IMG/VR virus record: IMGVR_UViG_3300036716_000305
Span: 1-52,777 of that record
DNA: 52,777 nucleotides
Origin: a virus
Lineage: Duplodnaviria > Caudoviricetes
Direction: 5' to 3' (one strand)
In this document: positions 1 to 52,777 of the stretch, one piece after another
How positions within the stretch are numbered: position 1 is the first letter of the stretch
How the letters are laid out: each line of letters begins with the position of its first letter
Made by a program: the position numbers and the translations under genes
The notes under the pieces: generated by a model
Seen by the model: the letters and a program-made list of their open reading frames with translations, nothing else
Database searches by the model: none
Told to the model about the DNA's origin: nothing

Positions 1-2
1 TT

Positions 3-533
3 AAAGAGTTAGGTTTAAGAGAGGTTGCTTTTGAGAGGCTCACACACGATGGGTCTGCTGAAAGAAACCCCCACATATTCCCAACTAATCGCCAAATAGA
101 TGATTGGATATGGGAGATGCATCAGGTTAATGACAGGGGTTACTTTAATAACGTACTTCTCGAATCGATTTACGCTAAGTTTGAGGGCGGCGGCAACAGG
201 AACTCCACCTTTTGCAGAGGCTGTGAAAAGATAATGTTTACGATTAATGCAGACGGGACAATAGCCGGTTGCCCTAATAGCGCACCCACTAGTCATTATG
301 CCCACATAGGTGATGACATAGACAGTATACTGAACCATGAGAAAAGAGGCTGTATGATAGCCACAGAGGCTCTTATAGACCCGAGATGCATACCGTGCGA
401 AGTTTTCGGACAGTGCGGTGGTGATTGTTACAAACTAGATTGGGACACACAATGTCCCGCGCCTAAGAGGTTAATGTATGGACTTAATAATAAAACCGAC
501 AGAGCTGTGCAACTTCAAGTGCACCTTCTGTAG
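3..533 (+). CDS. Radical SAM/SPASM-domain protein, 5'-truncated by window edge
   Basis: Frame is open from nt 3 (KELGLREVAFERLTHDG...) into the 117..533 ORF; SPASM-type Cys pattern CRGC...TINADGTIAGCP...CIPCEVFGQCGGDC...CP. The CxxxCxxC motif would lie upstream of the window. Confidence 0.8.
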   Translation, partial: KELGLREVAFERLTHDGSAERNPHIFPTNRQIDDWIWEMHQVNDRGYFNNVLLESIYAKFEGGGNRNSTFCRGCEKIMFTINADGTIAGCPNSAPTSHYAHIGDDIDSILNHEKRGCMIATEALIDPRCIPCEVFGQCGGDCYKLDWDTQCPAPKRLMYGLNNKTDRAVQLQVHLL

Positions 534-1440
534 TAGCTCAAACATATCGGAAGATAGTGCCAAGTTACTAGATATCAACGAGATATTTAAGTTTCTTGAC
601 GAGCACCCAGACACAAGAACCGTTATAGTAAATGGTGGAGACCCTTTGATGGTCAAGCCCGAATATTACTATCAGATAATAGACTATCTTGACGAACACG
701 ACATGGACACATCTATATCGTTTACAACCAATCTATGGCCTTTTTATAAGACTAAAAAGTGGGATGAGTTGTTCAAACACCCTAGAATGGCCGTAACGAC
801 ATCTTTCCAATACGGAGGTGGCAGACTCAAGGGTGACTACTCTATGTTCACAGAAGAGGACTTCTGGGGCGTTTCAGACTCAATGTTAGATAGAATAGGT
901 TATAGACCAGATTTTATCGCTGTTGTGGTTGATGGTGAGCAAGACATAGCTATTGACAATGTTAAGTTAGCAAAAAAGATGGGTGTAGAGTGTAAGCTCA
1001 ATTATGCCATGGCCTCCGGCTCACAAGGTAAACCACTATTACTTGCTGATATATATAGTATATATTTAGATATATATGACCAAGGTCTAGAGGAGTGGGA
1101 GTACAACACAAAAGACATAATAAAGTCTATGGCTGGAGAAGATACAACCTGTCCAAGAAATAGAAAGTGTGACGAAGGTATCAGATGCATACAACCAGAA
1201 GCCGACCAATACACTTGCGGATCTTTTGCCGATGACAAAGAGTATCCTATAGGTGACAACTTTAGAGACGACCCTGAGTTGTTATCGATGAACAACTGGT
1301 GTTTTACTTGCCCATTGTTCAATCTGTGCAACGGCTGCTCTAAGACTATAAAAGACCATAAGAGGTTTGATATGCAAGGTAGACATTGTTTTGAAATGAA
1401 GCAACTTGAAGGTAGGCTTCTTAGCATGGAAATAAGATGA
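478..1440 (+). CDS. Radical SAM protein with C-terminal SPASM/twitch-like Cys cluster
   Basis: N-terminal IKPTELCNFKCTFC (CxxxCxxC), GGDPL, TTNL, C-terminal CFTCPLFNLCNGC...HC. Confidence 0.92.
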   Translation: MDLIIKPTELCNFKCTFCSSSNISEDSAKLLDINEIFKFLDEHPDTRTVIVNGGDPLMVKPEYYYQIIDYLDEHDMDTSISFTTNLWPFYKTKKWDELFKHPRMAVTTSFQYGGGRLKGDYSMFTEEDFWGVSDSMLDRIGYRPDFIAVVVDGEQDIAIDNVKLAKKMGVECKLNYAMASGSQGKPLLLADIYSIYLDIYDQGLEEWEYNTKDIIKSMAGEDTTCPRNRKCDEGIRCIQPEADQYTCGSFADDKEYPIGDNFRDDPELLSMNNWCFTCPLFNLCNGCSKTIKDHKRFDMQGRHCFEMKQLEGRLLSMEIR

Positions 1441-1820
1441 ATAAAAAAGTTAAGTTACTGAGTGCTGGCAATAGGTTCTTTTACATCGATAATGATGGAA
1501 GAGATTTTGAGTTAACAAAAGCTGAGGCTGTTATTAAGGTCTGTGAAGGGTTTTTTGTTGTTAAGGTAGAGGGGTTAGAGTCAGTTCATAAGTGGGGAAA
1601 GTCTGTACATGCTTTTATCTCTCCAGCTGGAAGCGCTTCATTCGATACACACACTGACGATGTGAACCTAGTAATAGCTAGCATAGAAGGTACAAAGTTT
1701 TTTGAGGTGTACGGAGAGACTGTAGAGATTAATGAAACATCTTCTTTATATGTGTCCGCAGGTAGCCCTCATAGAGGTGTTAATAGGTATGACTCAATAA
1801 CACTAAGTATTGAAGTATGA
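1437..1820 (+). CDS. Small JmjC/cupin-fold (2OG-Fe(II)-type) protein, putative hydroxylase
   Basis: SFDTHTDDVN (HxD), GTKFF, LYVSAGSPHRG (distal His) match the JmjC/cupin facial-triad layout. Confidence 0.72.
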   Translation: MNKKVKLLSAGNRFFYIDNDGRDFELTKAEAVIKVCEGFFVVKVEGLESVHKWGKSVHAFISPAGSASFDTHTDDVNLVIASIEGTKFFEVYGETVEINETSSLYVSAGSPHRGVNRYDSITLSIEV

Positions 1821-2722
1821 ATATCTCAATCAACCCCTCATACTTCTGCAACTTCAGTTGTAAGTTTTGCTACTTAACACCTGAACAACTTAACGACCAA
1901 AAGAGGATAGACTTAAGGGTTTTGGACAGCCTATTAAAGCAAGTCCCCAAGATAGACTATATAGACCTTTATGGTGGTGAAATAGGAGCACTAAGTTCAA
2001 CATATTTTAAAAAACTAAAAAAGACTATAAGGAAGCACTATAAGGGTGAGATAAACATCATAACTAACTTCTCCATGCTTAGTGATAACTTCTTTGCTGA
2101 TGATATATCCCTTTCGGTGTCGTATGACTTTACCGGAAGAGAGAGACATGCACAAGTATTCTCTAATATGCTAATGTCTCCTAAAAGGTATTCTGTATTG
2201 CTATTAGCTACAGAAGACGTTATTAAGATGGATGTTGATTCAATGGTTTCTCAGTTCAACATATTGCGTAACTTGGACAGCGTAGAGATTAAACCATACT
2301 CTATAAATCAAGCCAACTCCTTCAATGTAACTCATAAGGATTATGAAGACTTTGTGATAAAGTGGCTTGAATGTGATGTTCCAAAAGGCTTTACCTTTGG
2401 CAACAAAAGAAGTATTGAAAAGTCGTTAAAGAAGGAGTACAACGCATTCTCTGATGACCATATATACATCACGCCTAATGGCAAGTTTGGTGTATTAGAT
2501 TTTGACAAGGATGACAAAGAGCTATTCTTAGAACTTGATAACTTTAAAGAATACCTCGAATGGTGTGAGCGTGAAAAGGCTGAGCTTTCTGATATATGCA
2601 ATAGTTGTAAGTATCTTGGAACTTGTCTGACAGAGCACTATAGATATGTAGAGAATCTAGATAACTCTTGTAATGGATACATAGGGTTGCTGGATTATTA
2701 CGACAAAGAACATATGGAATAA
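1817..2722 (+). CDS. Radical SAM protein with C-terminal Cys cluster
   Basis: INPSYFCNFSCKFCY (CxxxCxxC), YGGEI, ITNFS, C-terminal CNSCKYLGTC...SC. Confidence 0.92.
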   Translation: MNISINPSYFCNFSCKFCYLTPEQLNDQKRIDLRVLDSLLKQVPKIDYIDLYGGEIGALSSTYFKKLKKTIRKHYKGEINIITNFSMLSDNFFADDISLSVSYDFTGRERHAQVFSNMLMSPKRYSVLLLATEDVIKMDVDSMVSQFNILRNLDSVEIKPYSINQANSFNVTHKDYEDFVIKWLECDVPKGFTFGNKRSIEKSLKKEYNAFSDDHIYITPNGKFGVLDFDKDDKELFLELDNFKEYLEWCEREKAELSDICNSCKYLGTCLTEHYRYVENLDNSCNGYIGLLDYYDKEHME

Positions 2723-2724
2723 AT

Positions 2725-3150
2725 ATGAAGGACTGGAAAATTAGACAAGAGATGTATCACAGAATGAATGATGATTTCGGAGATGATCTTTCAGATAAGG
2801 ATATTCAATATAGGTACGACACGATAGTTGGGGATTGTGTTGATTACATTAAAAAACCCAAAGAAGATACTGGCTGGATGTATCCTGCTAAGTCATATGT
2901 AGTTGCATTGTGCTATGCACAGTGGATATCAGAGGATTTTAAAGAAGACTTTAACGAGCTTATTAATGACCCTGACCTACTTTATAACAACGACCCTCAC
3001 TTCGTAATATACAAAGACAGCGAAGATGAGTACAAAGGTATTATAGAGAAGATGGGTTTGCCGTTACCGTTTACCGGTGTGGTCCCCGATATAAGAAAAT
3101 ACTACGAGAGAGAATTCATGCTAACACCAATGGAGAATTATGAGCATTAG
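2725..3150 (+). CDS. Hypothetical protein, last gene of the radical SAM cassette
   Basis: 141-aa acidic ORF starting 2 nt after the rSAM stop and overlapping the next gene. Confidence 0.7.
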   Translation: MKDWKIRQEMYHRMNDDFGDDLSDKDIQYRYDTIVGDCVDYIKKPKEDTGWMYPAKSYVVALCYAQWISEDFKEDFNELINDPDLLYNNDPHFVIYKDSEDEYKGIIEKMGLPLPFTGVVPDIRKYYEREFMLTPMENYEH

Positions 3151-3406
3151 AGAAGATAAATGGCACCTAAGTAGATCGGTAAGCATTAGCCACCTACTGA
3201 CGACAGGGGCTTTAATATTTGGGGCCTTAATGTATGTTACAGATATAAGGCAAGACATTGCGGTGATGCAGGCAGAGCAGAAGCATATACAGCAACAGAT
3301 CGTTACCATTCAAGAAGATAATAAAGAAATGTTTGCGTCCATCGATGATAAGCTGGATCAAATGATATCGATTATCCATAACTATCGAACGGAGAATTTA
3401 CGATGA
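3140..3406 (+). CDS. Small membrane protein (one TM + coiled coil), possible lysis accessory
   Basis: Hydrophobic LLTTGALIFGALMYV followed by Q-rich heptads. Confidence 0.6.
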   Translation: MSIREDKWHLSRSVSISHLLTTGALIFGALMYVTDIRQDIAVMQAEQKHIQQQIVTIQEDNKEMFASIDDKLDQMISIIHNYRTENLR

Positions 3407-3606
3407 TGAAGAAAATAAAGCTATACCTACTACTTACAGCCATTGGTTCAACTGGGTTATTCGCTGGTTATAGCTGGCTGGAAGGTGTTGTTACTGATGC
3501 TTTTATTACGGTAGGCACTGACAAGGTAGAAGAGGTAGTTAAGCAGAAAGCTGAAGACAGGTTAAAGGAGAAGCTGGGTGACCTACTTGAGAGCGCATTA
3601 CAATGA
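3403..3606 (+). CDS. Small membrane protein
   Basis: N-terminal basic + hydrophobic segment; ATGA overlaps with neighbours. Confidence 0.6.
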   Translation: MMKKIKLYLLLTAIGSTGLFAGYSWLEGVVTDAFITVGTDKVEEVVKQKAEDRLKEKLGDLLESALQ

Positions 3607-3806
3607 AGATCGACACGCCCACACTATTAACCTTGGCTGGAATTATTGGGGGAATAGTGTTCACTTACGGACAATTAACCAACAAAGTCAACAGCTTAGA
3701 GTACCTGAAAGAGTTGTCAGACACAAACATGAACAGGGTTATTGTGCTGGAAACAAAGATTGAAGCCGCACAGACGGCTTTTGAATTATACATAGGGGGA
3801 CAATAA
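3603..3806 (+). CDS. Small membrane protein (TM + coiled coil)
   Basis: LLTLAGIIGGIVFTYG hydrophobic segment; coupled to neighbours. Confidence 0.6.
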   Translation: MKIDTPTLLTLAGIIGGIVFTYGQLTNKVNSLEYLKELSDTNMNRVIVLETKIEAAQTAFELYIGGQ

Positions 3807-4237
3807 TGTTTGGACTACCAATTGAGATTTTGACGATGCTCGCAAGTACACTTGGGGGTGGCATAATGAAGATGTGGAGTCAGTCACAGGCTGACCTTGC
3901 TGACGAGAGAAACCATCGTAAAGAACAATATATGAACGTAGAGGCTAGTATGGAAAGGGCAGGTAAGCTCAACACTCCAGAGGCGTCTTGGGCTAAGAGA
4001 TTCTTAGTCGTATCATTCATGGCTATGGCCGCTTACATACTAATTGCACCCGCACTAGGAATGTCAACTGTCGTACCAGTAGAGGTTACCTCTGGATTTA
4101 AGTTCTTGTTCTTAGATTTTACAAATACAGTTACAGAATATGTTAGCCTAGAAGGCACAGTAGTTCCAGAATGGCTAGGACATGCAATTATGGCAGTCGT
4201 AGGCTTATATTTTGGTCAATCTATAACTAGACGTTAA
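3806..4237 (+). CDS. Putative holin (three hydrophobic segments)
   Basis: Three TM-like segments and a C-terminal GLYFG..RR resembling 3-TM holins. Confidence 0.55.
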   Translation: MFGLPIEILTMLASTLGGGIMKMWSQSQADLADERNHRKEQYMNVEASMERAGKLNTPEASWAKRFLVVSFMAMAAYILIAPALGMSTVVPVEVTSGFKFLFLDFTNTVTEYVSLEGTVVPEWLGHAIMAVVGLYFGQSITRR

Positions 4238-4246
4238 GGAGTCGAT

Positions 4247-5800
4247 ATGTCTTTTACTAAAACACCAGAGGTTGATTTCTCATCCGTAGGTTTAATTACA
4301 GATGTTCCGAGTCACTCTCTACCTCAAGGGGCATGGAGTGACTGCTTAAATATTAGATGCAAGGACGGTAGTGTTCAAGGTGTTAATGTATTTGAAGATG
4401 GATTTCCTTTATTCACTAGTTCTAACACTGGTATTCGAGACGGAAAGGCCATGGCGGTCACCCAGTTCTTGGAGGCCGGTGGTAACAACCTTGTAATAGC
4501 TTACATCGTAAAGGATGCTAGTGGAGATGGTCACGTTGTAACGTACAACACAGGAACCTCAACATACTTAAACCTTACTAACGCGCTTACACCTAATCAG
4601 TTTACCTTTGATGACAGATACCCTCCACAGATTTATGTGTTCAATGAACTGTTGATTGTTAATCCAGCTAACGATGCTCCTCCAATGTTTTCAGACGATG
4701 TGAACACAGCAGGAAGTCTTGTTACGCTACCAAATTGGCCTAGTGATTCTCATGGTTCAAAATTAGTAACAAGAATATTAAAGCCATTCAACAATAGATT
4801 GATGGCTATGAATATATTTGAAGAGCACCAAGCAACAGCGGACGACGATGAGTTTCTTCCTATTGATATTTTATGGTCATCCCACATAACTGGGATTGGA
4901 AGTATAGATGCCGTAGAGTGGTCTTACGATGGTATTAACACTGCTGGCGATGCCTTTGCAGTTGAGACGCCCGGCAAGATACTTGATGGTGGTCAGCTAG
5001 GAGAATACTTTATTGCTTATAAGACAGATGCTGTCATAAGGGTTAGAGAGACTGGTGACACATACGTACTAGCTTTTGAAAGTATCTTTGAAGATGATGG
5101 TATTTACTCTGCAAGATGTTTTGCTAATATAGGAAACGCACAGCACTTGGTTATTGGAAACTATGGAGTGTACCTTCATGATGGTCAATCACAGAAAGAA
5201 GATATTGCTAAAGGATTATTCCAAGATGTAATGTTTAACTCTGTAAAGGCTACTAAGAAGGACAAGTCGTTCTGCTTCCAACAGACTAGAGATAAAGAAG
5301 TGTGGTTTTGCTTCCCATCTAAAACTATTAGTGGCGATGGTTGTGACAGGGCTTTTGTATTTGACTATAGCACTAGAAAGTTACACTTAAGAAGTTTGCC
5401 AAACATATCCGATGCTTTTGAAACAGAGCAAAATGGAGAGCTTAAGATTTATGCAGCTAAAGAAGGTGCTGCGGCTGAAATTCAAACACTATCAAGTACG
5501 GTGTTTGAGGAAAATGGATTCTTCATAAGGGTTAATGATAACTACAAAGACAGTGCATATAAATGGATAAACGCTATCCATCTTGATTCTATGAATAGTG
5601 TACAGATTAGTGTAGTTGGAACCAATAGTATCACTGATACTGCGGTATACTCTTTACAGACATTTAATCCCACTACGGATTATAAGTTAGACTTTAGAAC
5701 GTCTGGACGTTATATGAATATTAAGGTGCAAATGTTAGGGGCTTCAAACCCATTATTAGGCAGGATGCAATTTGAATTAAAGGTTGCTGGAAAACGATAA
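4247..5800 (+). CDS. Tail nozzle / packaged-DNA stabilisation protein (P22 gp10 or T7 tail tubular B-like)
   Basis: 517 aa, beta-rich; N-terminal GLITDVP..LP...W..CLN; C-terminal DFRTSGRY; position before the tail fibre. Confidence 0.6.
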   Translation: MSFTKTPEVDFSSVGLITDVPSHSLPQGAWSDCLNIRCKDGSVQGVNVFEDGFPLFTSSNTGIRDGKAMAVTQFLEAGGNNLVIAYIVKDASGDGHVVTYNTGTSTYLNLTNALTPNQFTFDDRYPPQIYVFNELLIVNPANDAPPMFSDDVNTAGSLVTLPNWPSDSHGSKLVTRILKPFNNRLMAMNIFEEHQATADDDEFLPIDILWSSHITGIGSIDAVEWSYDGINTAGDAFAVETPGKILDGGQLGEYFIAYKTDAVIRVRETGDTYVLAFESIFEDDGIYSARCFANIGNAQHLVIGNYGVYLHDGQSQKEDIAKGLFQDVMFNSVKATKKDKSFCFQQTRDKEVWFCFPSKTISGDGCDRAFVFDYSTRKLHLRSLPNISDAFETEQNGELKIYAAKEGAAAEIQTLSSTVFEENGFFIRVNDNYKDSAYKWINAIHLDSMNSVQISVVGTNSITDTAVYSLQTFNPTTDYKLDFRTSGRYMNIKVQMLGASNPLLGRMQFELKVAGKR

Positions 5801-5812
5801 AAGGATTACAAT

Positions 5813-8800
5813 ATGGCTAAGATTTCAGAAACGGAACTTCAGAGAAAACTAAGAAACGCTAAAACATCCTCTGGAACCACTGGAGGAAGAACTGCTGTTC
5901 AGAAGGACGGAGTTTGGGAATACACAAGCCCTGTTATTTATACGGCCTATGCCGATAATATTACTAATCGCTCAACAACCGGTAAGATTCCATCACAAGC
6001 AGATGCTGCGGGATTCCAATTGGAGCCGCATGATGCTGGTGGAGAACTGTTAGACTGGAGAGGGCACTTGTTCTCTACAAGTATTTATGAGTCCGGAGAT
6101 CCAACTGATTACACATGGGAGTTGGCCGACTATACTGGTGTTACAACATCTTTTGAGAGAAGCTATACAACATCTACTAAACTACTAGTTGACGTTGGAA
6201 ACCCAACCTTTCCGGGAACTGGCATAACTTGGACGTCAATTGCGTCTAACCTAGCCCTTCCAGATAATGCTTATTTTGTAGCAGAGAGGTACACAATTAA
6301 AGGAGCAACTTCAGCGTGGATGGTTTATCCTGTTGCTGTTGAGGAGAATGGCTTTGGTCTAATTCCTTACACAATAACTGGTAGAGATGCACCAGCCCTT
6401 AATAGTGCTCAGTGGAACACAGATACTTTAACAGCTGTTACTTCTTTTACTGGAAGAACATATTCAACTATTAAAGAGTTCGGATATGGAACAACTATTG
6501 TTATTACATACGATGATGGAAAGCTATATGGGCTACTTAAAAAGGTCAGTGGCACTGCATCTTTTGTTGCTCCTGTGGATTACATCGACGGTGCTTTACT
6601 TGTAGATACATCAATCATTGCAGACAAGATTGCCAACAACGCTATCACGGTTAATAAGATTCTTAACGACTCTATTAACGCTGATAAGATTGCTGATAAT
6701 GCAGTCACTACAGCAGCGATTATTAGCAACGCCATCAATTCAGATAAGATAGCTAACAACGCTGTAACATCTAATGAGATAGCTGCAAACACTATTGTTG
6801 CTAACAATATACAAGCTAACGCAATAGGTGCTAACGAGATAGCTGCAGATGCTATCACTGCTAATGAGATAGCCACAGACGCTGTTACGGCCAACGCCAT
6901 TCAGGCAGGATCTGTTGGTGCTAATGAGATAGCTGCAAATAGTATCACAGCAGGTGAGATAGCTGCAGACGCTATCACTGCAAGCGAAATAGCTGTAGAC
7001 GCTGTAGAGGCTTCAAGTATTAAGGCTGGAGCTGTCACAACAAACAAGATAGAGGCTTTAGCAATAACTGCTGAAACTATAGCGGCAAATGCCATCATAT
7101 CAGACAAGATTGCAACAAATGCTATCACCTCTGGAAAACTATTAATAACCGGAACAGGCAATGTCTCAGAAGTAATCACACCAGCTTATATTGGTGCACC
7201 AACTACTGCTGCATTAGCAACTGTAATTGGCGATGTTGCAACTGCACAGAGTACGGCTGACGGAAAGATAAACTCTTACTTTCAGGACGCTGCACCAACT
7301 AGTTTAACTGCTAGTGATGAAGGTGACTTATGGACAGACACCCTTGCTGCAAATAACAATGAATCATATAGATGGTCAGGAACCGCTTGGGAAGCTATTG
7401 CTGACGGTGGTATCGCAGATGCTATTGCAAGCGCTGCAGCTGCACAAAGTACTGCTGATGGAAAGGTCACAACCTTTTATCATGATGATCCTCCAACTGC
7501 TGAAGGTGAAGGTGACTTATGGGTAGACACTAATGATAGTAACAAACTACATAGGTGGAATGGAAGTGCTTGGCTAGATATTCATGATACAACATACTCC
7601 TCAATAGGTAGTATTACAGGAGGCATTTCAGCCTCTCAAGTTGCAAATGCTGTAAATACAAACTCAACAACAGTTGATGGCGGAAAGATTACAGCCGCCT
7701 CTATTGGAGCTTCACACTTAATTGTCAGTGGCGCAAACGCTGTTGAACTTGATGGTCTTAAAACATTTAGACAAACAACATCACCAACAGCAGAGAATGA
7801 AGGCGACCTATGGTATGACAGTGATGACCATAACAAACTATACAGGTGGGACGGCTCTACTTGGGTCTCAAATCAGGACAATACGGTTGCTGACAATATC
7901 TATTCGTCTGGCACAACCTATATAAATGGTGGTATTATAACTACAGACACAATTTCAGGCAATCATATTCAGGCTGGAGAGATTGATGCTGGCCACCTTA
8001 GTGTTGATTCTGTAACTGTAGATAAGATAAACGTTGATGGGCAATTAGACATTAGCGAATCGACAGGCTCGTTCACTTTTAAGAAGACAAAGTATAGTGA
8101 TTATTCAACAAACGGTGTCTTCCTAGGAAACAGAACAGGTAGCAACATACCCGTGTTCTTGGCAGGAAGCACTACAAGCTATATCCAAGTGGATGATGGT
8201 GGTGTAACTATCGTTGGTGCAGATTTTGCTGACTCAACAACTATTTCAACACCAGCATTGCCTAATGTTCCAACGGAATATAATACTAGTGGTCAATTTA
8301 CCTTTCCTATCTCTAGTGCTTACGACACGCTAACTTTTGAACTATCTGGTGCAGGTGGTGGTGGTGGTGGAGCTCGTGCAGGTGGTGGTAGTACCTCGGG
8401 TGGCGTAACCGGTGGACAAACCAAAGTAGAAATTTTAGATGGTAATGGTGCTGTTGTGAGTGGTGCAACATGGACAGCGAACGGTGGTTCAGGTGGTGGA
8501 CATAACACAACCGTAGCTTCTACTAGATATGGTGATGATTTTGACGTCTCACCAGTTGACACATTTTTTACAGGTGATGGCGGTACGGGAACCCCTTCAA
8601 ACCCAAGTAGTGGTACTTCCCATACTGGTAGCGTTGGTGGCGCGGTATCGTCTGGAGGCGAGGGTGGTGCTGATGGCGCATCTTGGTCTGACTTTGATGA
8701 CGATAGGTTTGGTGTTGGCGGTAGTGCTGGTAGCTTCTCCTCACCAAGTGCTTACACCCTACAAAGTTCTCACCATTCTGTAAGAGTGACGGTTGGAACT

Positions 8801-8881
8801 GGCGGGAATGGTGGTAGTGGTGCTGCTAGTGGTGGTAGAGGCGCCCATGGTGCCGTTCGTATTTCAGTAACTTTACATTAG
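5813..8881 (+). CDS. Tail fibre / receptor-binding protein
   Basis: 10-aa periodic AITANEIAA repeats, three GDLW..D....L.RW.G..W modules, Gly-rich C-terminal domain. Confidence 0.85.
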   Translation: MAKISETELQRKLRNAKTSSGTTGGRTAVQKDGVWEYTSPVIYTAYADNITNRSTTGKIPSQADAAGFQLEPHDAGGELLDWRGHLFSTSIYESGDPTDYTWELADYTGVTTSFERSYTTSTKLLVDVGNPTFPGTGITWTSIASNLALPDNAYFVAERYTIKGATSAWMVYPVAVEENGFGLIPYTITGRDAPALNSAQWNTDTLTAVTSFTGRTYSTIKEFGYGTTIVITYDDGKLYGLLKKVSGTASFVAPVDYIDGALLVDTSIIADKIANNAITVNKILNDSINADKIADNAVTTAAIISNAINSDKIANNAVTSNEIAANTIVANNIQANAIGANEIAADAITANEIATDAVTANAIQAGSVGANEIAANSITAGEIAADAITASEIAVDAVEASSIKAGAVTTNKIEALAITAETIAANAIISDKIATNAITSGKLLITGTGNVSEVITPAYIGAPTTAALATVIGDVATAQSTADGKINSYFQDAAPTSLTASDEGDLWTDTLAANNNESYRWSGTAWEAIADGGIADAIASAAAAQSTADGKVTTFYHDDPPTAEGEGDLWVDTNDSNKLHRWNGSAWLDIHDTTYSSIGSITGGISASQVANAVNTNSTTVDGGKITAASIGASHLIVSGANAVELDGLKTFRQTTSPTAENEGDLWYDSDDHNKLYRWDGSTWVSNQDNTVADNIYSSGTTYINGGIITTDTISGNHIQAGEIDAGHLSVDSVTVDKINVDGQLDISESTGSFTFKKTKYSDYSTNGVFLGNRTGSNIPVFLAGSTTSYIQVDDGGVTIVGADFADSTTISTPALPNVPTEYNTSGQFTFPISSAYDTLTFELSGAGGGGGGARAGGGSTSGGVTGGQTKVEILDGNGAVVSGATWTANGGSGGGHNTTVASTRYGDDFDVSPVDTFFTGDGGTGTPSNPSSGTSHTGSVGGAVSSGGEGGADGASWSDFDDDRFGVGGSAGSFSSPSAYTLQSSHHSVRVTVGTGGNGGSGAASGGRGAHGAVRISVTLH
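6613..7140 (+). repeat. Intragenic ~30-bp periodic repeat encoding (A/S)I(T/G)AxxIAxx units
   Basis: Repeated gctaatgagatagctgca / gctatcactgc variants. Confidence 0.85.
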
Positions 8882-8889
8882 GTATAGTC

Positions 8890-9234
8890 ATGTATATAAT
8901 AACAGATAGAAAGACAGGAAGAGTGTTAAGGACTGGCCTAAGCCGAAGTGAAATGCAAGGCATTATCAATACTTCAATGGACTTCGCTGAAGACAGTGAG
9001 CATGGTGTTGTAACTATTGGAATGAAGTACGACAAAAGCTCTAATAGTTTTGTTGACATGACAGATAGTGATGTTAGAGACATTAGGGCTAAAATACTTA
9101 AAGATACAGATTGGCGAGCCACTGTTGACTATCCAAACACAGACCAAAGTGCTTGGCTTGAATACAGACAGGCGCTAAGAGATATGCCACAGAATAGCTC
9201 TGTGGTATTCCCACAATCACCGGAGGGTGTTTAA
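8890..9234 (+). CDS. Tail fibre assembly chaperone
   Basis: R..L..TDW...W..YRQALRDMPQ...FP..P signature; directly after the fibre gene. Confidence 0.8.
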   Translation: MYIITDRKTGRVLRTGLSRSEMQGIINTSMDFAEDSEHGVVTIGMKYDKSSNSFVDMTDSDVRDIRAKILKDTDWRATVDYPNTDQSAWLEYRQALRDMPQNSSVVFPQSPEGV

Positions 9235-9237
9235 AAG

Positions 9238-9675
9238 ATGTATGAGATAAAGCAAGTAGTCGGGGAAGATATCCTGATTAGATACAACAGCCTCAAGGTT
9301 GAAATTGATAGGGCGATGGAGCATTCTGACGGAGAGTGGAATGCTTCTCAAATTGTTACTAAATGCATTACTGACCCAGTTAACTTTCATATATGGGAAG
9401 TGTGTATAGATGGCTCTCCAGTTGCTATAGCGTCTACTAGGGTTATGTATTACAATAGTTTCACAGCCTTACATATAACAACACTCGGAGGTTCTGGATT
9501 GTACAATCACATGACGGACCTAATCGAAGAGTTTGAGGCAAAGGTAAGAGGGTACAAGAATATTGACTTTCTAGAATATACAGGACGGAAAGGGTTTCTT
9601 AAACAACTCACAAAGTCTGGTTGGAGAGAGACATACACTACTATGAGAAAAGATATCAGGGGGAATAATGAGTGA
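9238..9675 (+). CDS. Hypothetical virion-assembly protein, possibly GNAT-like fold
   Basis: LHITTLGG...EYTGRKGFLKQL...GW pattern; position at the start of the internal-virion block. Confidence 0.45.
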   Translation: MYEIKQVVGEDILIRYNSLKVEIDRAMEHSDGEWNASQIVTKCITDPVNFHIWEVCIDGSPVAIASTRVMYYNSFTALHITTLGGSGLYNHMTDLIEEFEAKVRGYKNIDFLEYTGRKGFLKQLTKSGWRETYTTMRKDIRGNNE

Positions 9676-10261
9676 TTTTGACCTTGGCGAATTCATTCCG
9701 CCAGTTAAGTATGACAATACACGACTTCTTAGTTTTTTAAAAGAGAAGGAAGACCTGAGACTTGAGGGTTATCACGCAACAAAGGATGAGGCAAAAGACG
9801 AACTAGTGACTGTTGGTTGGGGCTCTACTAGGCGTGTTGGACTTGGCGACAAGATTACAGAAGAGCAAGCTGAAGAGTTTTTTAAACAAGATGTTGGTGA
9901 TGCTGAAGGGCATATTCGAGATCTTGTTAAAGTACCACTTAACGATAACCAAAGAATGGCTCTTGTGTCCTTGGTCATGAATATTGGTAGACAGAGACTG
10001 TTAGATTCAAAAGCTTTAAAGAATCTAAACAATGGAGATTACAAAGGCTTCTTATTTGAAGCTAATGATCCAGCAATGGGTTTTGTAAAGGACAGGAAAG
10101 GTGGCGAGATACTTGGCGGACTTCTAAAAAGAAGAGACGATGAAGGGAAGATGTTTAATGGAACCCTTTGGCCAGAAGAAGAGCGTGACTGGCAGAAAGA
10201 GAACTTGGGAGCGTTTGACACAACAAACGACAGGTTCGACGAATTATATTTAGGAAACTAG
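9668..10261 (+). CDS. Phage lysozyme (GH24-like muramidase)
   Basis: EDLRLEGY...VTVGWG, ITEEQAE, VKVPLNDNQ..ALVSL..NIG, GLLKRR. Confidence 0.88.
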   Translation: MSDFDLGEFIPPVKYDNTRLLSFLKEKEDLRLEGYHATKDEAKDELVTVGWGSTRRVGLGDKITEEQAEEFFKQDVGDAEGHIRDLVKVPLNDNQRMALVSLVMNIGRQRLLDSKALKNLNNGDYKGFLFEANDPAMGFVKDRKGGEILGGLLKRRDDEGKMFNGTLWPEEERDWQKENLGAFDTTNDRFDELYLGN

Positions 10262-10268
10262 GAGACCT

Positions 10269-10982
10269 ATGCTAAATACAAAAACAAAGATTTATGACGG
10301 TGTTACATTCGATATGAGCACTGGAGATGTTATTAGTCACGGTAAGGTTTCTTACGTTGATAGTAACAAGGTGGCTTACACAAAAGGTGGAGACACTACA
10401 CAAACGACTACGATGGACCCTGCATTAACAGCGGCAGCAACAAAGATGCTTGGCCACGCAAGTACCGCTTACGAAAATGGTGAGCTTGGTGGTGTTGCTG
10501 AGTTAAATCCATTAGCACAACAAGCAATTGACCAAGCAGGTGGTGTTGCATCTAATCAAGACCAATTAGCAGCCAACATGATGGCTCAGGCTAACCAAGG
10601 CGTTGACCTATCAGGCATGAAGACTAAGTACTCACTTGAGGCTCAACAAGCTCTTGGTGGAAACGCAATGGGCGCTTCTGCAACTGGAACTATGGGTGGT
10701 CAAAGAGAAAGGTTTAACCAAGCCGGTATTCAGAACAATCTTGCAGCTAATTTTGCAAGTGTTGACCAGACGGCAGCACAGCAGAACATGGCATTCAACC
10801 AAGCGGCTCAAGCAGCTCAAAGCACTGGAATTCAAACATTAGGTCAGGTTGGACAAGCTCAACAGACTTATAACCAACAAGTGGCTGACGCGGAAGGCAA
10901 AGCTTTGGAGCAATACGCTCAAACATTTGGTCAGGCTGGCAACTCATTCGGTAAAACTGTTACGCAGACCGGAGGTAAGTAA
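10269..10982 (+). CDS. Internal virion / DNA ejection (pilot-like) protein
   Basis: A/Q/G-rich, ends TQTGGK; located between tail genes and large ejection proteins. Confidence 0.6.
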   Translation: MLNTKTKIYDGVTFDMSTGDVISHGKVSYVDSNKVAYTKGGDTTQTTTMDPALTAAATKMLGHASTAYENGELGGVAELNPLAQQAIDQAGGVASNQDQLAANMMAQANQGVDLSGMKTKYSLEAQQALGGNAMGASATGTMGGQRERFNQAGIQNNLAANFASVDQTAAQQNMAFNQAAQAAQSTGIQTLGQVGQAQQTYNQQVADAEGKALEQYAQTFGQAGNSFGKTVTQTGGK

Positions 10983-11257
10983 TGAACTGGTCAGACCTTG
11001 ACCTTGGCTCAGTTTTTGACTATAAAAAATTAGCCGAGATGAAGATGGACGATGAGGTTGTTAAGGGTGTCACTAATAGTGATATTGCAACTAGCGGTAT
11101 TGGAGCATTGAACTCTGGCAACTGGGGACAAGCTGCGGCTGGACTAGCTGGTAAAGCTGCTGGAACTGCTGTGTTAGGACCAGTCGGTGGTATGGTAGGT
11201 GGAGCTGTAGCTAGTTATTTGACACAAGGTCCACAGCCAATGACTATATGGGATTAA
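10982..11257 (+). CDS. Small glycine-zipper virion protein
   Basis: GxxxG repeats AGLAGKAAGTAVLGPVGGMVGGAV. Confidence 0.6.
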   Translation: MNWSDLDLGSVFDYKKLAEMKMDDEVVKGVTNSDIATSGIGALNSGNWGQAAAGLAGKAAGTAVLGPVGGMVGGAVASYLTQGPQPMTIWD

Positions 11258-11267
11258 GGAGAGTGTT

Positions 11268-13379
11268 ATGACACCAGAAGAATTAGAAAGATTAAAGATG
11301 GAAGGTATCAAAGGATATCTTTCAGGAAACCTCTCACAATCAAGAACAGCTGAGATTTCAAATGCTGTACAAGAAGGTTCGGTAAAACAAGTAACCAGTC
11401 AAACCTCAGCATTTGATCTAAGCCCAGAAAACAGATTTACACCAATGATTGCAGCACAAGCTAATAACAAAGGTGTGAACACAGAAAACCTTGAAACAGG
11501 GAAAATATCTGATTCAATATTTGACCAGATAGGAAAATGGTGGGACGGAGATAAGGCAACTAGTGCTGTAGCAGAATCTCAACCAACGTTTCGACTTAAC
11601 CCAGAAGCAAACAGAGCAGCATTTGATGCGTTGAACGAAAAGTATCCATCAGCTAACTTTAATATGTACCTCCCGGATGTAGACTGGTCTAGTCCAGAGG
11701 CAGAGGCGAAGTTTCAAGCTACTGTTCCAGATAACCTTGCAGTAGACCCTAGAGGGACAAAAGAAGGTATAGTTGTCAATACTACTAACGCTGAGTCTGA
11801 GTTGGTAAACCCTAGAGTCACGGCAAGACAGAACGTTCAAGAAAGAGACGCAGCTGTGAAAGCGGATGTGCAAGCATTTGAAGACGTTTTTGGAGAGAGT
11901 GGCGGTGATGTTCGTGCAGAATATAATGAACATAAAGACACTATTGAAGCTCTAAGCGGACTACAAGAGAGATATAATGCTCTGACCCCTGCTCAACAGA
12001 AAGGTCGTGTTGGATTGGGATTATTAAAGAGGATTGAAGACCTTTCGGTTAATAAAAGCGAAATAGAAGAAAGTATTTTTGAAACTGAAGAGGCTGTATA
12101 TTCTACTAAGGTTGATACTAAGCAGAAAGAAGAAGCCAAACCAGCGGCCACAAAAGAAGAGGTTTATAGCGGTTTAGGCGATGCAGCAAAGAGCTATCAA
12201 GTTCACACCGACGCAGGTGATGCTGAGGGTCAGGCGAATGTTGAAAATGGAATCATTAAAGAGATCGAGAGAAACAAAGGCGACGAAGGCTTCTTAGACA
12301 AACTAAACTCTTGGATTGTAGATAACCCTGCATTAGCCAGTGGTATCGGAAATGCCCTTGTTGGTTTTATTTCAACAGGTAGCGCCTATAAAGCTTTAGG
12401 TCTTGGTATTCAAGGCTATATAAATGGTGTTGGCAAGGCTGACGCAGACAAGAAGGCATGGGACAAGATTGGTAGAGACTTGATGATTGATGATGGAGCC
12501 ACACCGGCTTCTGTCAAGAAATATCTAAAGACTCAGAACATTGAGGACCTTGTATTCTCTAAAGCGCCTCCTGAGATTAAATCAGACTCTCACGGCTCTA
12601 AGTGGGTTGGCGGAAGAAGGTATGAGTTTTGGAATACCCAGCAAGGTATATGGATTAGAAACCCTAATGGAACAGGTTATATTCCAGCAAAGTATTTGTC
12701 TGAGGACTTTCAAAGGTATCCAGACTTTGACAAATCAATACACACAAAGAAAGGTAGAGATGAAGCTCAAAATCAATATGCCAAGGAACAAGCCAACATT
12801 GTAAGCAATGTTATGATAGATTCTGGAGTGCCAACTCATAAGGCAAACGCTCTTCATACAAACCATATTGGAAACGCAATAGATTCGCTACGCACAGCAT
12901 ACGGGCTTGACTTTACAGACCCAGCAACCAGAAACGCTGCTGGCATGGCGATGCAGAGCCATGTTAACTCTGAGGCCGCTAGGTGGCATACCTTTAAAGA
13001 TAAGCACGATGAAAAGGAATATCACAAGTTCAAGTGGGATACTAACTATAAAGCCGCTATTGAGAAAGGGATGATTAAACAGCAGCTTGCTAGTAACTCT
13101 CTTCCACAGGAGATATTGCTTAACAAGGATGGCGAAGTTGACAAGAAAGGTACTTCAAAGTTGTACAGGAAGATTAACAACTTTATTAACCACCCAGACA
13201 ACAAAGGAAAGACGCAAAACCTTGGTTCTGCAATTAAAACCATTTATAACGAATGGGTTACAGAGGTTCATGGTGGAAACAAAGAAAACGCTTTGAAGCA
13301 CAACAAGGGAGAAAGTGCATTTTTAAGGTGGGCTGATGAACACGCAGACTTTGTGATTGAACCACCTGAAGACAAATAG
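11268..13379 (+). CDS. Internal virion / ejection protein
   Basis: 703-aa ORF with AGGAG RBS in the ejection block; one Gly-rich hydrophobic stretch. Confidence 0.55.
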   Translation: MTPEELERLKMEGIKGYLSGNLSQSRTAEISNAVQEGSVKQVTSQTSAFDLSPENRFTPMIAAQANNKGVNTENLETGKISDSIFDQIGKWWDGDKATSAVAESQPTFRLNPEANRAAFDALNEKYPSANFNMYLPDVDWSSPEAEAKFQATVPDNLAVDPRGTKEGIVVNTTNAESELVNPRVTARQNVQERDAAVKADVQAFEDVFGESGGDVRAEYNEHKDTIEALSGLQERYNALTPAQQKGRVGLGLLKRIEDLSVNKSEIEESIFETEEAVYSTKVDTKQKEEAKPAATKEEVYSGLGDAAKSYQVHTDAGDAEGQANVENGIIKEIERNKGDEGFLDKLNSWIVDNPALASGIGNALVGFISTGSAYKALGLGIQGYINGVGKADADKKAWDKIGRDLMIDDGATPASVKKYLKTQNIEDLVFSKAPPEIKSDSHGSKWVGGRRYEFWNTQQGIWIRNPNGTGYIPAKYLSEDFQRYPDFDKSIHTKKGRDEAQNQYAKEQANIVSNVMIDSGVPTHKANALHTNHIGNAIDSLRTAYGLDFTDPATRNAAGMAMQSHVNSEAARWHTFKDKHDEKEYHKFKWDTNYKAAIEKGMIKQQLASNSLPQEILLNKDGEVDKKGTSKLYRKINNFINHPDNKGKTQNLGSAIKTIYNEWVTEVHGGNKENALKHNKGESAFLRWADEHADFVIEPPEDK

Positions 13380-16400: not shown

Positions 16401-17428
16401 AGAGTGAGAATAGAGCTGTAGAAGATTTTTACAGATATCAATACGCTCACGGCTCTCAAGGTGCTGTAGCTCAGTTTGATATTGAGATGGGTAATGGCAG
16501 GTCTAGGAAGTTTAGAGAGAAGACTTTAGAGGCTTTCTTTAAGCTTAACCTCCTAGGACCATTTACAGACGGAACTCGTATCGCTCGACTAGCTATGGCG
16601 GTTGATGCCATCTTTAGTGATATAGAGATTATGATAAATCACTACAACGGTTCCCAAAGGGTTTCCAATTATGCAGCTGACGCTTTTGCTAGGCTGAGAG
16701 ATTTAAATGTAAATCCTACGGATATCTCTAAAAGGTATGATAAGCTTGTAAATAATATGAAGAATGACCCTATGGTCGACAAAACAGACGCACAGTCTAT
16801 TCATGAGTATATCGTAAAGAACGACCCAGAGTTGTTAGAAATACTAGATATTGCACGTAAAAGTTACGTTGACAACGCTCTAGCAAACCCTAACCCTGTT
16901 GACAGGCCTTTATGGTATTCTAATCAGCACTTTAGATTGATGACACAGTACAATGGTTTTCTTTCAACATTTTCTTCTCATATTCTACCAAGAGTGTGGA
17001 GAGAGATTAAGCAAGGAAACCCTTCAGCAAGATACAACGCTGTAGCTGCTGTAGCTGGTATGATGGCTCTTGGTTTTATTGGTCAGTCACTTAAAGATGA
17101 GGTTGATAGAGAGGGTGAAACACCTGAAACTTTAACTGAAATGGGATTCTACCAGAGAGGAATAACAGCATCAGGCTTGTTAGGAACTTCTGAAAGGTTC
17201 TTAAACATTGTCCACCCTTTATATAGGTCTTATGAAACAGTTCCAGAACAAATGTTTGATGAGATTGCAGGACCAACATCTGGATCTGCTGGAAAGATAT
17301 ACAGGGCTTTAGAAACAATAGCTGAAGGTAACAACCTAAGGCCAGTGCAATACGGTAAGTTGACTCCTTATGGATCCACTTTGAACTCGTGGAGCAATAT
17401 AGGAAACAATATCATTGGAGATAAATAA
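13403..17428 (+). CDS. Large ejection protein with N-terminal thermonuclease (SNase)-like domain
   Basis: 1341 aa; IDNDTI...VRLKGLAGPE...HGR...G.TLS..LI.EG resembles SNase; TM-like Gly-rich segments; C-terminal LMTQYNGF region reminiscent of T7 gp16-like proteins. Confidence 0.6.
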   Translation: MANINLAARDDTFIDTEVGKYAFIDNDTIKNDEGHSVRLKGLAGPETSKFLKHDGLFGDEYSISSGQYKGDLKTKQVGQIANEGGYNKLVLTGNQTHGRDEGDLVNEEGQTLSDRLIFEGIIDPATNEGLKKSELGRIHRALSGEGDDIYSQARAEEAQKDREQFIGWKGQAIDEQDLMEYNQARGLVSDGTWGQYVQNSVQFRSNDRDINNQANSAFSTGLESGLNNIASSAYGFASLIGDMVNNEELFDWGQRNAEHYEIENEQLGHYVNTIGDVDSLVDFGRYTAGMSGQMIPYLVGLFGATVGGIAVGTATGVAALGTGIAVGIPSIIYAGESYQGMEGDMTERGVGWALSAGVAATLLDRAGLRGMLDVKDVLSKDITEQLVKSYAAKQNIPVDKARTFLQHQANARVVSAYAKLNGIGFAEAKKKIGDITADIQQELIKFLGDKASLTLNKRLLAKQAAKSFGTSGVKESFTEMGQEGSIYASQVLGSQKEFNSDELQDILINSATGGFILGGGIGGFHGTGSSYAKFQQAKRNISVSDGFHDRNFYGNNTEVNYQTIVDLADKEFERIKAENPDVDIDVTKEGEKDYKEGTLLDSVKEKGVVKTAKEFPGRFARKFGEIIQDKADGLSDDAKFTLFTLLDNFAPSNTSHMAGVNFGKLKRSLIGSLNREVGNIEAKLIAKIGKRVNKKSKQDVSDMLVAFQRLQEKKGEEPLTAKDLPENLKPHLDELHDASNKINQATDTLLQIVERQTGTKVGRQGNYFSNAVQLDIDKIIKKKAKFIQDVLIIHLGMTQADALQFYDDLVNSPKGYDPEKLKELGFKNTSGPQNLKRANAGLKNFKDIDEFTYDNKFDQLVGIVENNINYAIDTKYLGKNNEKLDKALQVLKQQMGDQWDPRIATWIKDSIAAERGDYKPVKNKYLREMQSWISWYNATTQLNTTLLASLPELGMVMFGKRAKSNNELILDATKGVSGKWLHDFRRMKSKVLKNSGFSEESENRAVEDFYRYQYAHGSQGAVAQFDIEMGNGRSRKFREKTLEAFFKLNLLGPFTDGTRIARLAMAVDAIFSDIEIMINHYNGSQRVSNYAADAFARLRDLNVNPTDISKRYDKLVNNMKNDPMVDKTDAQSIHEYIVKNDPELLEILDIARKSYVDNALANPNPVDRPLWYSNQHFRLMTQYNGFLSTFSSHILPRVWREIKQGNPSARYNAVAAVAGMMALGFIGQSLKDEVDREGETPETLTEMGFYQRGITASGLLGTSERFLNIVHPLYRSYETVPEQMFDEIAGPTSGSAGKIYRALETIAEGNNLRPVQYGKLTPYGSTLNSWSNIGNNIIGDK

Positions 17429-52147: not shown

Positions 52148-52777
52148 ATGGCAAATACGATTAAGATAAGACAGAGTGCGACTGCAGACAAAGTTCCTAC
52201 TACTGATAATACAATAACTGGCACACCAACCATAGCACAAGGTGAGTTAGCGATAAATACGGCAGACCAGAAGTTATTCTCTTCTGACGGGTCAAGTGTT
52301 TTTGAGCTTACTGGCGGTAGTGGAAGTGGAGACATTACAACCACAGCCCTAACGGCCTTTCCAACAGATACTGATGCCGCCTCTTCAGACTTTATTCCTG
52401 TATACGATGTTAGCGCATCTAGATGGGAGAAGCAGACAATAGCCAATGCAGCATTGCAAGGAGCTACAGGTGCTACAGGAGCCGCTGGAGCCGATGGCGC
52501 TACAGGAGCAACTGGCGCTACAGGTGCAGACAGCACGGTAGCTGGACCAACAGGAGCAACTGGAGCCACAGGACCAACTGGTGCTACAGGTAGTCAGGGA
52601 CCAATAGGTAATACTGGTTCACAAGGACCTACAGGTTCAACAGGTGCCACAGGCGCTACCGGCGCTACAGGAGCTACGGGAGCGGATGGTGATGATGGTG
52701 CTGATGGTGCTGATGGTAACTCAGATTACACAGAAGCCACAAGTGCGCCAAGCTCACCGTCAAATGGTGATATGTGG
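52148..52777 (+). CDS. Collagen-like tail fibre, 3'-truncated (not in ORF track)
   Basis: [10 protein letters not shown]...[12 protein letters not shown], then long G-X-Y repeats (GAT, GPT, GAD), then [12 protein letters not shown] at the window end. Confidence 0.88.

Follow-up and report, generated by a model that had tools for sequence, protein, structure and literature searches.

A phage gene cluster of radical SAM enzymes that probably matures a phage-encoded protein with a repeated Cys-His-x-Ser tail

The IMG/VR record IMGVR_UViG_3300036716_000305 is a linear contig of 52,777 bases from a virus of the Caudoviricetes, without terminal repeat and with a CheckV completeness estimate of 92%. 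The whole contig, hereafter called the window, is truncated within genes at both ends, since the open reading frame (ORF) at 3-533 is open at its 5' side and a fibre gene at 52148-52777 is open at its 3' side. The subject of the present analysis is the cassette at positions 3-3150, which the initial annotation had described as five overlapping or abutting plus-strand genes. All five are present, and they can be regarded as real genes rather than chance ORFs because homologues are found in the same order in 80 IMG/VR loci. The cassette, in our reading, forms the 3' end of a conserved phage cluster whose probable function is the post-translational maturation of a phage-encoded protein ending in a repeated Cys-His-x-Ser (CHxS) tail. 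The five genes, with the names used throughout, are the following:

3..533, plus strand: R5 (ORF1), the SPASM half of a radical S-adenosylmethionine (rSAM)-SPASM enzyme, C-terminal 176 amino acids (TIGR04085, 30.1 bits; phrog_1802, E 4e-20)
478..1440, plus strand: R6 (ORF2), an rSAM-SPASM enzyme of 320 amino acids (Radical_SAM, 36.5 bits, cut-off 29.5)
1437..1820, plus strand: a small single-domain cupin of 127 amino acids (JmjC_2, 23.8 bits, cut-off 22; Cupin_2, 23.0 bits, cut-off 27.2)
1817..2722, plus strand: R7 (ORF4), an rSAM enzyme with one four-Cys auxiliary-cluster site, 301 amino acids (Radical_SAM, 24.7 bits, under the cut-off of 29.5)
2725..3150, plus strand: O5 (ORF5), a protein of 141 amino acids with no assigned function (phrog_20737, E 2.4e-36)

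From ORF1 to ORF5, neighbouring genes overlap by 56, 4 and 4 nt, and the fourth junction is a gap of 2 nt; ORF5 overlaps the next gene by 11 nt. A promoter and terminator scan of window positions 1-6000 found nothing above shuffled controls. The enzymes were assigned with the cut-offs of Radical_SAM (PF04055, 29.5 bits), the TIGR04085 SPASM model (27 bits), JmjC_2 (PF08007, 22 bits) and Cupin_2 (27.2 bits). In radical SAM enzymes, the CX3CX2C motif holds the [4Fe-4S] cluster responsible for SAM cleavage. SPASM domains carry seven or eight Cys residues that hold two auxiliary clusters, while twitch domains carry about four Cys for one. In R6, C11/15/18 and the eight residues C225, 231, 247, 275, 278, 284, 287 and 304 are each 100% conserved among 71 homologues. 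The N-terminal half of R5, where its CX3CX2C motif would lie, is lost off the contig end; its full-length orthologue in the nearest relative (L003:9040-10056, 338 amino acids) possesses CX3CX2C and eight Cys that are kept in 60 homologues. In R7, all 62 homologues keep C11/C15/C18, C261, C264, C270, C285, H215 and H274, and the auxiliary site may be twitch-like or a partial SPASM. The three rSAM/SPASM enzymes of the initial annotation are therefore two with eight auxiliary Cys (ORF1 and ORF2) and one, ORF4, with a four-Cys site only; the cut-off of the TIGR04085 SPASM model is passed by R5 alone. R5, R6 and R7 all match phrog_1802 and, together with a fourth enzyme named R4 that lies upstream in related phages, are paralogues (hhalign probability 96-99%; R7 versus R4 97.2%, R7 versus R6 96.6%), with 7, 8, 8 and 4 conserved C-terminal Cys in R4, R5, R6 and R7, respectively.

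The cupin and O5 complete the cassette. The cupin displays an invariant metal site, H72-x-D74...H112, accompanied by invariant H58 and K43, and K87 is present in at least 90% of its 41-47 homologues. JmjC_2-type 2OG oxygenases have an iron triad of the form H-x-D/E...H on a double-stranded beta-helix. The JmjC part of the earlier JmjC/cupin label is weak. The JmjC_2 match spans 43 residues only. Queried as a single sequence against the PDB, the cupin retrieved the histidyl hydroxylases MINA53 and NO66 as top matches (from E 1.5e-3), whereas its family profile placed generic Cupin_2 proteins first (quercetinase, 1.6e-10) with MINA53 at 1.6e-3. A role as histidyl hydroxylase, suggested by the MINA53 match, was dropped on this account, and because the family profile favours generic cupins we name the protein a metal-binding cupin and probable oxygenase, no further. 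O5, always the last gene of the cassette, has no Pfam or NCBIfam family. None of its 14 invariant columns in 40 sequences is a Cys or His. Its model is confident and helical (predicted local distance difference test, pLDDT, 90.7); Foldseek against the PDB returned nothing at E<=1e-3, the top wide VIA score was Z 3.6 and the winged-helix-like matches were weak only (Z<=3.6).

The cassette extends well beyond this contig. ORF2 and ORF5 each match 15 of 50,697 phage records, which are the same phages. The cultured carriers are jumbo phages, namely Atu_ph07, Phosso, the RSL2/RSF1/FLC/S13/RsoM3USA group and pPa_SNUABM_DT01, and R6 shares 47.5-52.9% identity with proteins of the 15 jumbo-phage records. 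In IMG/VR, at least 243 stretches hold relatives of ORF2, and the locus counts given here rest on the best 80 of the 243. Proteins of the nearest locus, L003, were used as tblastn queries against 83 sources (82 loci and the window). R6, the most conserved gene of the cluster, was detected in 83/83 sources, R7 in 81/83, R5 in 78/83, the cupin in 72/83, O5 in 71/83 and R4 in 70/83. The entire core (R4-R7, cupin and O5) lies inside the fetched stretch in 51 of the 80 IMG/VR loci, and each locus encodes four to nine rSAM enzymes.

Comparison with L003 indicates that the window holds only the 3' end of this larger cluster. Positions 9524-12644 of L003 share 85.1% DNA identity with window positions 1-3140, and the alignment ends exactly at the end of ORF5. 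Upstream of the position equivalent to nt 1, L003 begins with three 2-oxoglutarate (2OG)-oxygenase-like genes, then a collagen-like fibre gene with a Peptidase_G2-like C-terminal domain. After the fibre gene come, from 5' to 3', an ORF of 127 amino acids, two genes without functional assignment (348 and 248 amino acids), three diverged rSAM genes of a type called R3, R4 and a full R5. Seven rSAM genes are thus encoded consecutively in the nearest relative, and not three as the window alone had led one to count. At the other end of the contig, window positions 52643-52777 align at 80% with a segment that lies upstream of L003 position 1 by about 1 kb; by synteny, the fibre gene at 52148-52777 would lie upstream of the missing part of the cluster. 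We infer that about 10.5 kb would be missing between nt 52777 and nt 1 if the two genomes are collinear, while the CheckV estimate of 92% suggests less.

The missing part was sought in marine metagenome runs. Among the 21 runs listed, 20, from 17 studies, carry window positions 1-3150 at least partly. In 18 runs at least half of the sampled words are present, and in run X2 100% of them; six runs are possible sources of the window. Four runs were compared with L003 positions 1-12700. In X2, a single contig of 10,376 bases is collinear with L003 2487-12638; over 9354-12638 it shows 480 differences and 25 gaps. It is about 85% identical to L003, the same divergence as that of the window from L003. 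This contig bridges the end of the window, as it spans L003 position 9524 (window nt 1) and then runs on across R5, R4, the R3 genes and the two genes without functional assignment into the gene of the 127-amino-acid protein (L003 2514-2897). Runs X1 and X7 show the same layout on two contigs each. The X2 differences at the start of the latter gene translate to MSMTASQLD..., matching the N-terminus of protein P0057, which ends in CHSSCHTNCHTSRGRR and is found on 12 contigs, the longest of 64,054 bases. Indirect as it is, this evidence suggests that the window's own phage population has the upstream part of the cluster, and it answers the call of the initial annotation to recover the sequence ahead of nt 1.

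The 127-amino-acid protein of L003 is our candidate substrate. It ends in ...CHSSCHSSCHSSRGRR-stop, which can also be written as LCHSSCHSSCHSSRGRR-stop, and the consensus of this tail is C-H-x-S-C-H-x-S-C-H-x-S-R-G-R-R-COOH, 16 residues long. A six-frame scan found the strict pattern CHxxCHxxCHxx in 49 of the 83 sources, always at the extreme C-terminus and then followed by R-x-R-R-stop. Two further loci (L026:4748-5437 and L027:4748-5437) carry the variant CHYSCFTSSCHFSRGRR, in which the middle unit lacks His and is one residue longer, and P0130 has a two-repeat tail, ...YCHTSCHGSRGRR; such variants could reveal which units are essential. Most motif-negative loci are truncated, either where their contig ends or at the limit of the 10-kb flank. 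When five motif-negative records were re-examined whole, four, including L050, which alone had looked truly devoid of it, turned out to carry the motif just past the flank, and the fifth ends on that side.

The association also holds when approached from the opposite direction. A degenerate DNA pattern for the motif alone retrieved at least 119 IMG/VR stretches, the rough chance expectation being far below one, and 113 of the 119 listed encode a homologue of the cassette rSAMs; the remaining six are stretches of 1.1-10.7 kb. In a tail-free test, a hidden Markov model of the N-terminal domain, built without the 16 C-terminal residues of the tail, was run against 1.84 billion representatives. 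It retrieved 27 proteins: 16 with the triple repeat, one with the double repeat (P0130), two that begin the repeat and then diverge, probably by frameshift, seven fragments that stop earlier and one weakly matching tail-fibre protein. All 17 full-length proteins found by this tail-free profile carry the tail. The linkage to a precursor across phages that the initial annotation had asked for is thus found from the motif alone and from the N-terminal domain alone, and the sequences compared point to the tail protein as a near-obligatory genetic partner of the rSAM cassette. The weakly matching fibre protein, P0132 (1811 amino acids; phrog_9942, E 4e-84), contains five internal stretches weakly resembling the central N-terminal domain (E 2.3e-4), which may be a shared fibre repeat or only a compositional effect.

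The 138 unique complete tail proteins range from 124 to 364 amino acids (median 187). At positions that the search pattern did not fix, Ser occurs at -13, -9 and -5 in 126, 111 and 126 of the 138, respectively, and Gly at -3 in 122; in 113, V, I or L stands directly before the first Cys. The N-terminal domain is variable (26-63% identity in the small class) and often tandem-duplicated, and no Pfam family was found for it in 11 proteins nor an NCBIfam family in the one protein scanned. PHROGs matches the C-terminal part only (phrog_35144, function unassigned). The AlphaFold model (pLDDT 75.4) predicts a small helix, beta-hairpin and helix domain; the tail, at pLDDT 53-58, is predicted to be flexible. 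No fold match emerged for this model (top wide VIA Z 4.9; none in BFVD at E<=1e-3). A complex prediction of O5 with the L003 tail protein scored 0.00 and, made without controls, is informative neither way. The initial annotation had placed the substrate off the 5' end of the contig, probably just upstream of nt 1 and possibly as a short Cys/His-repeat precursor peptide. A Cys/His-repeat gene does lie upstream in the relatives, but some 6.6-7 kb from the position matching nt 1, and the candidate is no short precursor peptide: it is a full protein with an invariant tail and without a variable core.

Other genes accompany the core in a lineage-dependent manner. The 248-amino-acid protein of L003 (g248, L003:3953-4696) and cluster 10 (phrog_20767) of other loci form one family (hhalign 98.9%); the ESM Atlas returned no usable match for g248 or for the cluster-9 protein (L025:4329-5453), and the Atlas models were poor (pLDDT 0.31 and 0.36). 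2OG-Fe(II) oxygenases are encoded in 74 of the 80 loci and a B12-binding rSAM enzyme in 26 (for example L050:8356-10026, cluster 13). Some versions of the cluster contain a tryptophan-halogenase-like flavin adenine dinucleotide enzyme (L033:13118-14458, cluster 42; PF04820, E 1.3e-72). By analogy, 2OG oxygenases, a B12-dependent rSAM and a halogenase-like flavoenzyme would be accessory genes typical of peptide tailoring, and the latter two are hints of methylation and halogenation steps in some lineages. In L003 and L006, relatives of the window type, a second 2OGa/2OGb oxygenase pair lies several kb downstream of O5 (see also L003:3-1727).

Which known enzymes do the rSAMs resemble? None of the cassette reaches the cut-off of any curated NCBIfam family. 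The scores were the following:

PapB, 50 bits (cut-off 340)
YhhB, 44.5 bits (cut-off 445)
TIGR04083, 44 bits (cut-off 300)
anSME, 40 bits (cut-off 349)
DynA, 40.6 bits (cut-off 450)
FxsB, 34.7 bits (cut-off 370)
HxsC, 33.5 bits, second score 21.8 (cut-off 267.9)
HxsB, 31.6 bits (cut-off 370)
CXXX-repeat maturase, 31 bits (cut-off 350)
MoaA, 30 bits (cut-off 284)
NrdG2, 22.6 bits (cut-off 131)
QueE, 21.9 bits (cut-off 260)

The nearest curated families of full-length R5 and R6 are therefore peptide or protein maturases, and MoaA, NrdG2 and QueE score no better. No rSAM comes near the cut-offs of QueE, NrdG or MoaA, a clustering with which the initial annotation had named as an outcome that would contradict it, and its proposal of a multi-step modification of a protein or peptide rather than nucleotide chemistry is supported by every comparative test that was run. 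In a PDB sequence search, single R5 gave no match and single ORF2 matched lysine 2,3-aminomutase alone (E 1.1e-3); PADLOC reported only weak matches to the rSAM core of pVip (20-39 bits). R5, R6 and R7 open with CX3CX2C at residue 11-12 and therefore have no N-terminal recognition domain. A compact layout with CX3CX2C near the N-terminus is typical of the protein-modifying anSME. Both anSME and QhpD are rSAM-SPASM enzymes without a leader-recognition domain that act on Cys or Ser, or form Cys thioethers, in a protein substrate. The phage enzymes resemble them in their compact size of about 300-340 amino acids, the position of CX3CX2C and seven or eight auxiliary-cluster Cys. They differ by their scores (40 against 349 bits for TIGR03942, about 30 against 453 for TIGR03906), by another substrate motif and by the presence of four paralogues together.

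Two groups of pathways for peptides that are synthesized by ribosomes and modified after translation (RiPPs) offer further comparisons. The PapB ranthipeptide maturases, those of three-residue cyclophanes (XyeB, GrrM, FxsB, YhhB) and the CXXX-repeat maturases (TIGR04115) modify repeated short motifs. These repeat-motif maturases are the best NCBIfam matches of R5 and R6, and the phage cluster likewise combines rSAM-SPASM enzymes with a ribosomal product whose C-terminal part carries a repeated motif, on which the enzymes would act. In contrast to them, it reaches 18-50 bits against cut-offs of 310-450, shows no detected RiPP recognition element (RRE), employs a folded and variable carrier with an invariant core, and is viral. 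In proteusin (polytheonamide-type) clusters, one precursor is acted on by several rSAMs, some of them B12-dependent, and by 2OG-Fe(II) oxygenases. The phage cluster is similar in its many tailoring enzymes, which include both of these types; unlike proteusins, it shows no match to a nitrile-hydratase-like or Nif11 leader and has a 16-residue invariant core, and no homology to proteusin clusters was demonstrated.

Taken together, these observations suggest the following pathway. The substrate would be the flexible (C-H-x-S)x3-RGRR tail, common to all the core rSAMs. The four paralogous core enzymes R4-R7 with their auxiliary iron-sulfur (Fe-S) clusters, plus the R3-type rSAMs in the lineage of the window, would abstract hydrogen atoms from tail residues and thereby introduce covalent changes, one radical step per core paralogue. 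By analogy, the likeliest changes would be cross-links of the thioether or carbon-carbon kind, or else oxidation, at the Cys, His or Ser residues of every repeat. The cupin and the accessory 2OG-Fe(II) oxygenases could add oxygen-dependent steps such as hydroxylation, and O5 and the two conserved proteins without functional assignment may serve as non-redox accessory factors. The modified tail would then be a prosthetic or metal-binding group, borne by an adaptor that is specific to the phage and probably tied to the tail-fibre module. The contrast between an invariant tail and a variable carrier domain leads us to read the modified tail as a functional group and not as a diversifying peptide.

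Several observations weigh against the maturation of the tail by the cluster. The support for a modification of the tail consists of genetic linkage only. The combination of a variable N-terminal domain and an invariant tail inverts what is typical of RiPPs, and would suit a metal- or Fe-S-binding tail that serves the enzymes. RRE, leader peptidase and exporter were not detected in the core genes with Pfam, NCBIfam and PHROGs. Every family match of the enzymes is far under the curated cut-off, and R7 is similar to the viperin core across about 215 residues (37 bits). A dihydrofolate reductase gene lies inside the rSAM cluster of RSL2-type jumbo phages (L001 (RSL2) 6941-7477). Finally, the window itself contains neither the CHxxCHxxCHxx motif nor the tail-protein gene; the arrangement by which RiPP pathways are recognized, a precursor gene beside its modifying enzymes, is found in the relatives and on the X2 contig and not in the window.

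The place of a modified tail in the phage may be approached through the neighbouring genes. In the window, the cassette is flanked by the following structural genes:

4247-5800, plus strand: virion structural protein (phrog_3287)
5813-8881: tail fibre (PHROG match)
52148..52777, plus strand: collagen-like tail-fibre gene, open at its 3' side (PHROG tail-fibre families, for example phrog_5073, 5.9e-20)

With these genes around it, the cassette stands within the structural part of the genome and on the same strand as that part. The flanking context of the initial annotation is confirmed for the collagen-like fibre at the window end and for the structural protein and tail fibre downstream, but its holin label is not: among the small ORFs at 3140-4237, only 3806-4237 passes a crude hydrophobicity scan, and it has no PHROG match. 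The tail fibre at 5813-8881 contains numerous repeats of the 'ANxIxxxxI' type, and its C-terminal region is long and Gly/Ser/Ala-rich. Among the relatives, a fibre-type gene (clusters colS74, 31 or 44) lies at most three genes from the tail-protein gene in 23 of 45 loci, and of 166 loci with the motif, 89 have the Peptidase_G2-like C-terminal domain of the L003 fibre no more than 4 kb from the motif, a count in which some contigs figure twice. In 14 of the 80 loci, the gene after O5 resembles that of an L-shaped tail-fibre assembly protein. In RSL2 a virion structural protein is encoded upstream of the cluster, and in Atu_ph07 the tail sheath and endolysin genes lie about 10 kb from it. Fibre genes thus appear, from their positions, to be frequent though not universal neighbours of the cluster. 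The initial annotation had put forward late expression of the cassette and, as one option, its action on tail fibres; both are putative.

We tentatively consider that the mature product could be a virion component: a cross-linked and/or metal-binding (Cys-His-x-Ser)x3 'warhead' borne by a small adaptor that is part of, or docks to, the tail-fibre apparatus and acts in adsorption or genome delivery. Such a component could conceivably, with the same reserve, span many lineages, from marine podovirus-like phages of about 60 kb to jumbo phages of 200-490 kb.

The same chemistry might alternatively yield a soluble or released effector that is not bound to the virion, either excluding the DNA of competing phages as in the HXS system or acting as a peptide on host or neighbouring cells; we hold this to be rather unlikely. 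The nearest system described so far, the bacterial HXS anti-phage defence, comprises HxsA, a DNA-binding protein with HxS repeats rich in basic residues, which is matured by two rSAMs (HxsB and HxsC) and the small protein HxsD and whose modified motif is essential (PMC13128918). The phage cluster recalls HXS by its several rSAMs, its small accessory protein and a candidate protein substrate with tandem H-x-S beside basic residues; the three H-x-S units of the tail next to its basic residues speak for an effector, as does the fact that the jumbo-phage cluster is not always beside fibre genes. It differs from HXS in its viral origin, in a repeat that reads C-H-x-S, occurs three times and stands at the extreme C-terminus, and in its oxygenases and its four or more rSAMs with SPASM-type clusters; neither an export nor a peptidoglycan-binding part was detected in it. 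The HXS models TIGR03977/03978 were not reached, and no HxsA match for the tail protein (E<=0.1) or HxsD match for O5 (E<=1) was obtained, so that no model of HxsA, HxsB, HxsC or HxsD is matched at cut-off. Because these membership tests fail, the phage cluster is an analogue and not a member of HXS. Against a released effector also speak the lack of an obvious signal peptide in the tail proteins inspected by eye, the failure to detect a peptidoglycan-binding domain, an exporter or a protease, and the fact that, in the window as in many loci, the cluster sits within the structural or fibre module.

It is less probable still that the CHxS tail is not a substrate at all but a metal or Fe-S carrier, a scaffold or a structural subunit for Fe-S enzymes that act elsewhere. 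An invariant tail with three Cys and three His in 12 residues would suit such a role, as would the need of the four to nine rSAMs of each locus for two or three clusters apiece, and marine phages with Fe-S assembly genes and many rSAM genes are reported (PMC5332604). However, no Fe-S carrier family is matched by the 11 tail proteins scanned with Pfam or the one scanned with NCBIfam, and a highly variable, often tandem-duplicated N-terminal domain would be odd for a housekeeping carrier. A carrier would also leave the conserved Ser and the terminal RGRR unexplained, and the cluster offers no alternative conserved substrate.

That the enzymes act on a nucleotide, a DNA base or a small cofactor, the tail protein being unrelated, is very improbable: the weak similarity of the rSAM core to MoaA (30 bits), NrdG (22.6) and viperin (31-39) and the dihydrofolate reductase gene of the RSL2 cluster are outweighed by scores far under the cut-offs of 131-284 bits and no higher than those of the peptide maturases, by the absence of QueC and TGT from the window and by the near-obligatory linkage to the tail protein, for which it does not account. 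The initial annotation had listed nucleotide-modification partners as absent, and PF06508 (QueC) and PF01702 (TGT) indeed have no match in the window; QueD and FolE were not searched for.

The remainder of the genome provides the setting of the cluster. The guanine-cytosine skew and the coding strand flip at about 20500 and 42000, delimiting a plus-strand structural block and a minus-strand replication block. The major head protein is encoded at 48723-49715. After the tail genes, two long plus-strand ORFs at 13403-17428 (1341 amino acids) and 17428-20499 (1023 amino acids) match virion structural protein families and, weakly, an RNA-polymerase PHROG (phrog_414, E 2e-4), respectively; they may encode ejected internal virion proteins. 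By its large terminase, the closest cultured phage is Roseobacter phage CRP-7 (43% identity), which is not among the cassette-bearing records.

In the literature, no published description of the cluster or of the CHxS motif was found. The main text of the description of Agrobacterium phage Atu_ph07 (PMC6102473) does not mention gp169-171, of which gp170 is the tail protein (XYS97446 in Sinorhizobium phage Phosso), and the accessible parts of other jumbo-phage papers merely list cupin, Fe-S oxidoreductase, radical SAM and 2OG oxygenase genes (PMC8066314, PMC11898562). The proteins of the cluster are annotated only as 'radical SAM' or 'hypothetical', without a curated family.

So far, the rSAM/SPASM maturation of ribosomal products has been a matter of bacterial natural products, of cofactors and, recently, of one anti-phage effector. 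The cluster described here likely represents such a maturation in a viral setting, with a substrate family and enzyme families that are new, and it has so far been seen in viral sequence only, cellular genomes not being covered. Since the 16-residue invariant tail amounts to a concrete substrate hypothesis, its chemistry is directly testable. Should the product prove to be part of the virion or of the fibres, phage-host recognition would gain a further, enzymatically tailored layer, and it would become clear why several rSAM and 2OG-oxygenase genes lie near the structural genes of many phages. No virion component matured by radical SAM enzymes would then precede this tail, which would also constitute a class of protein-derived cofactor that is new.

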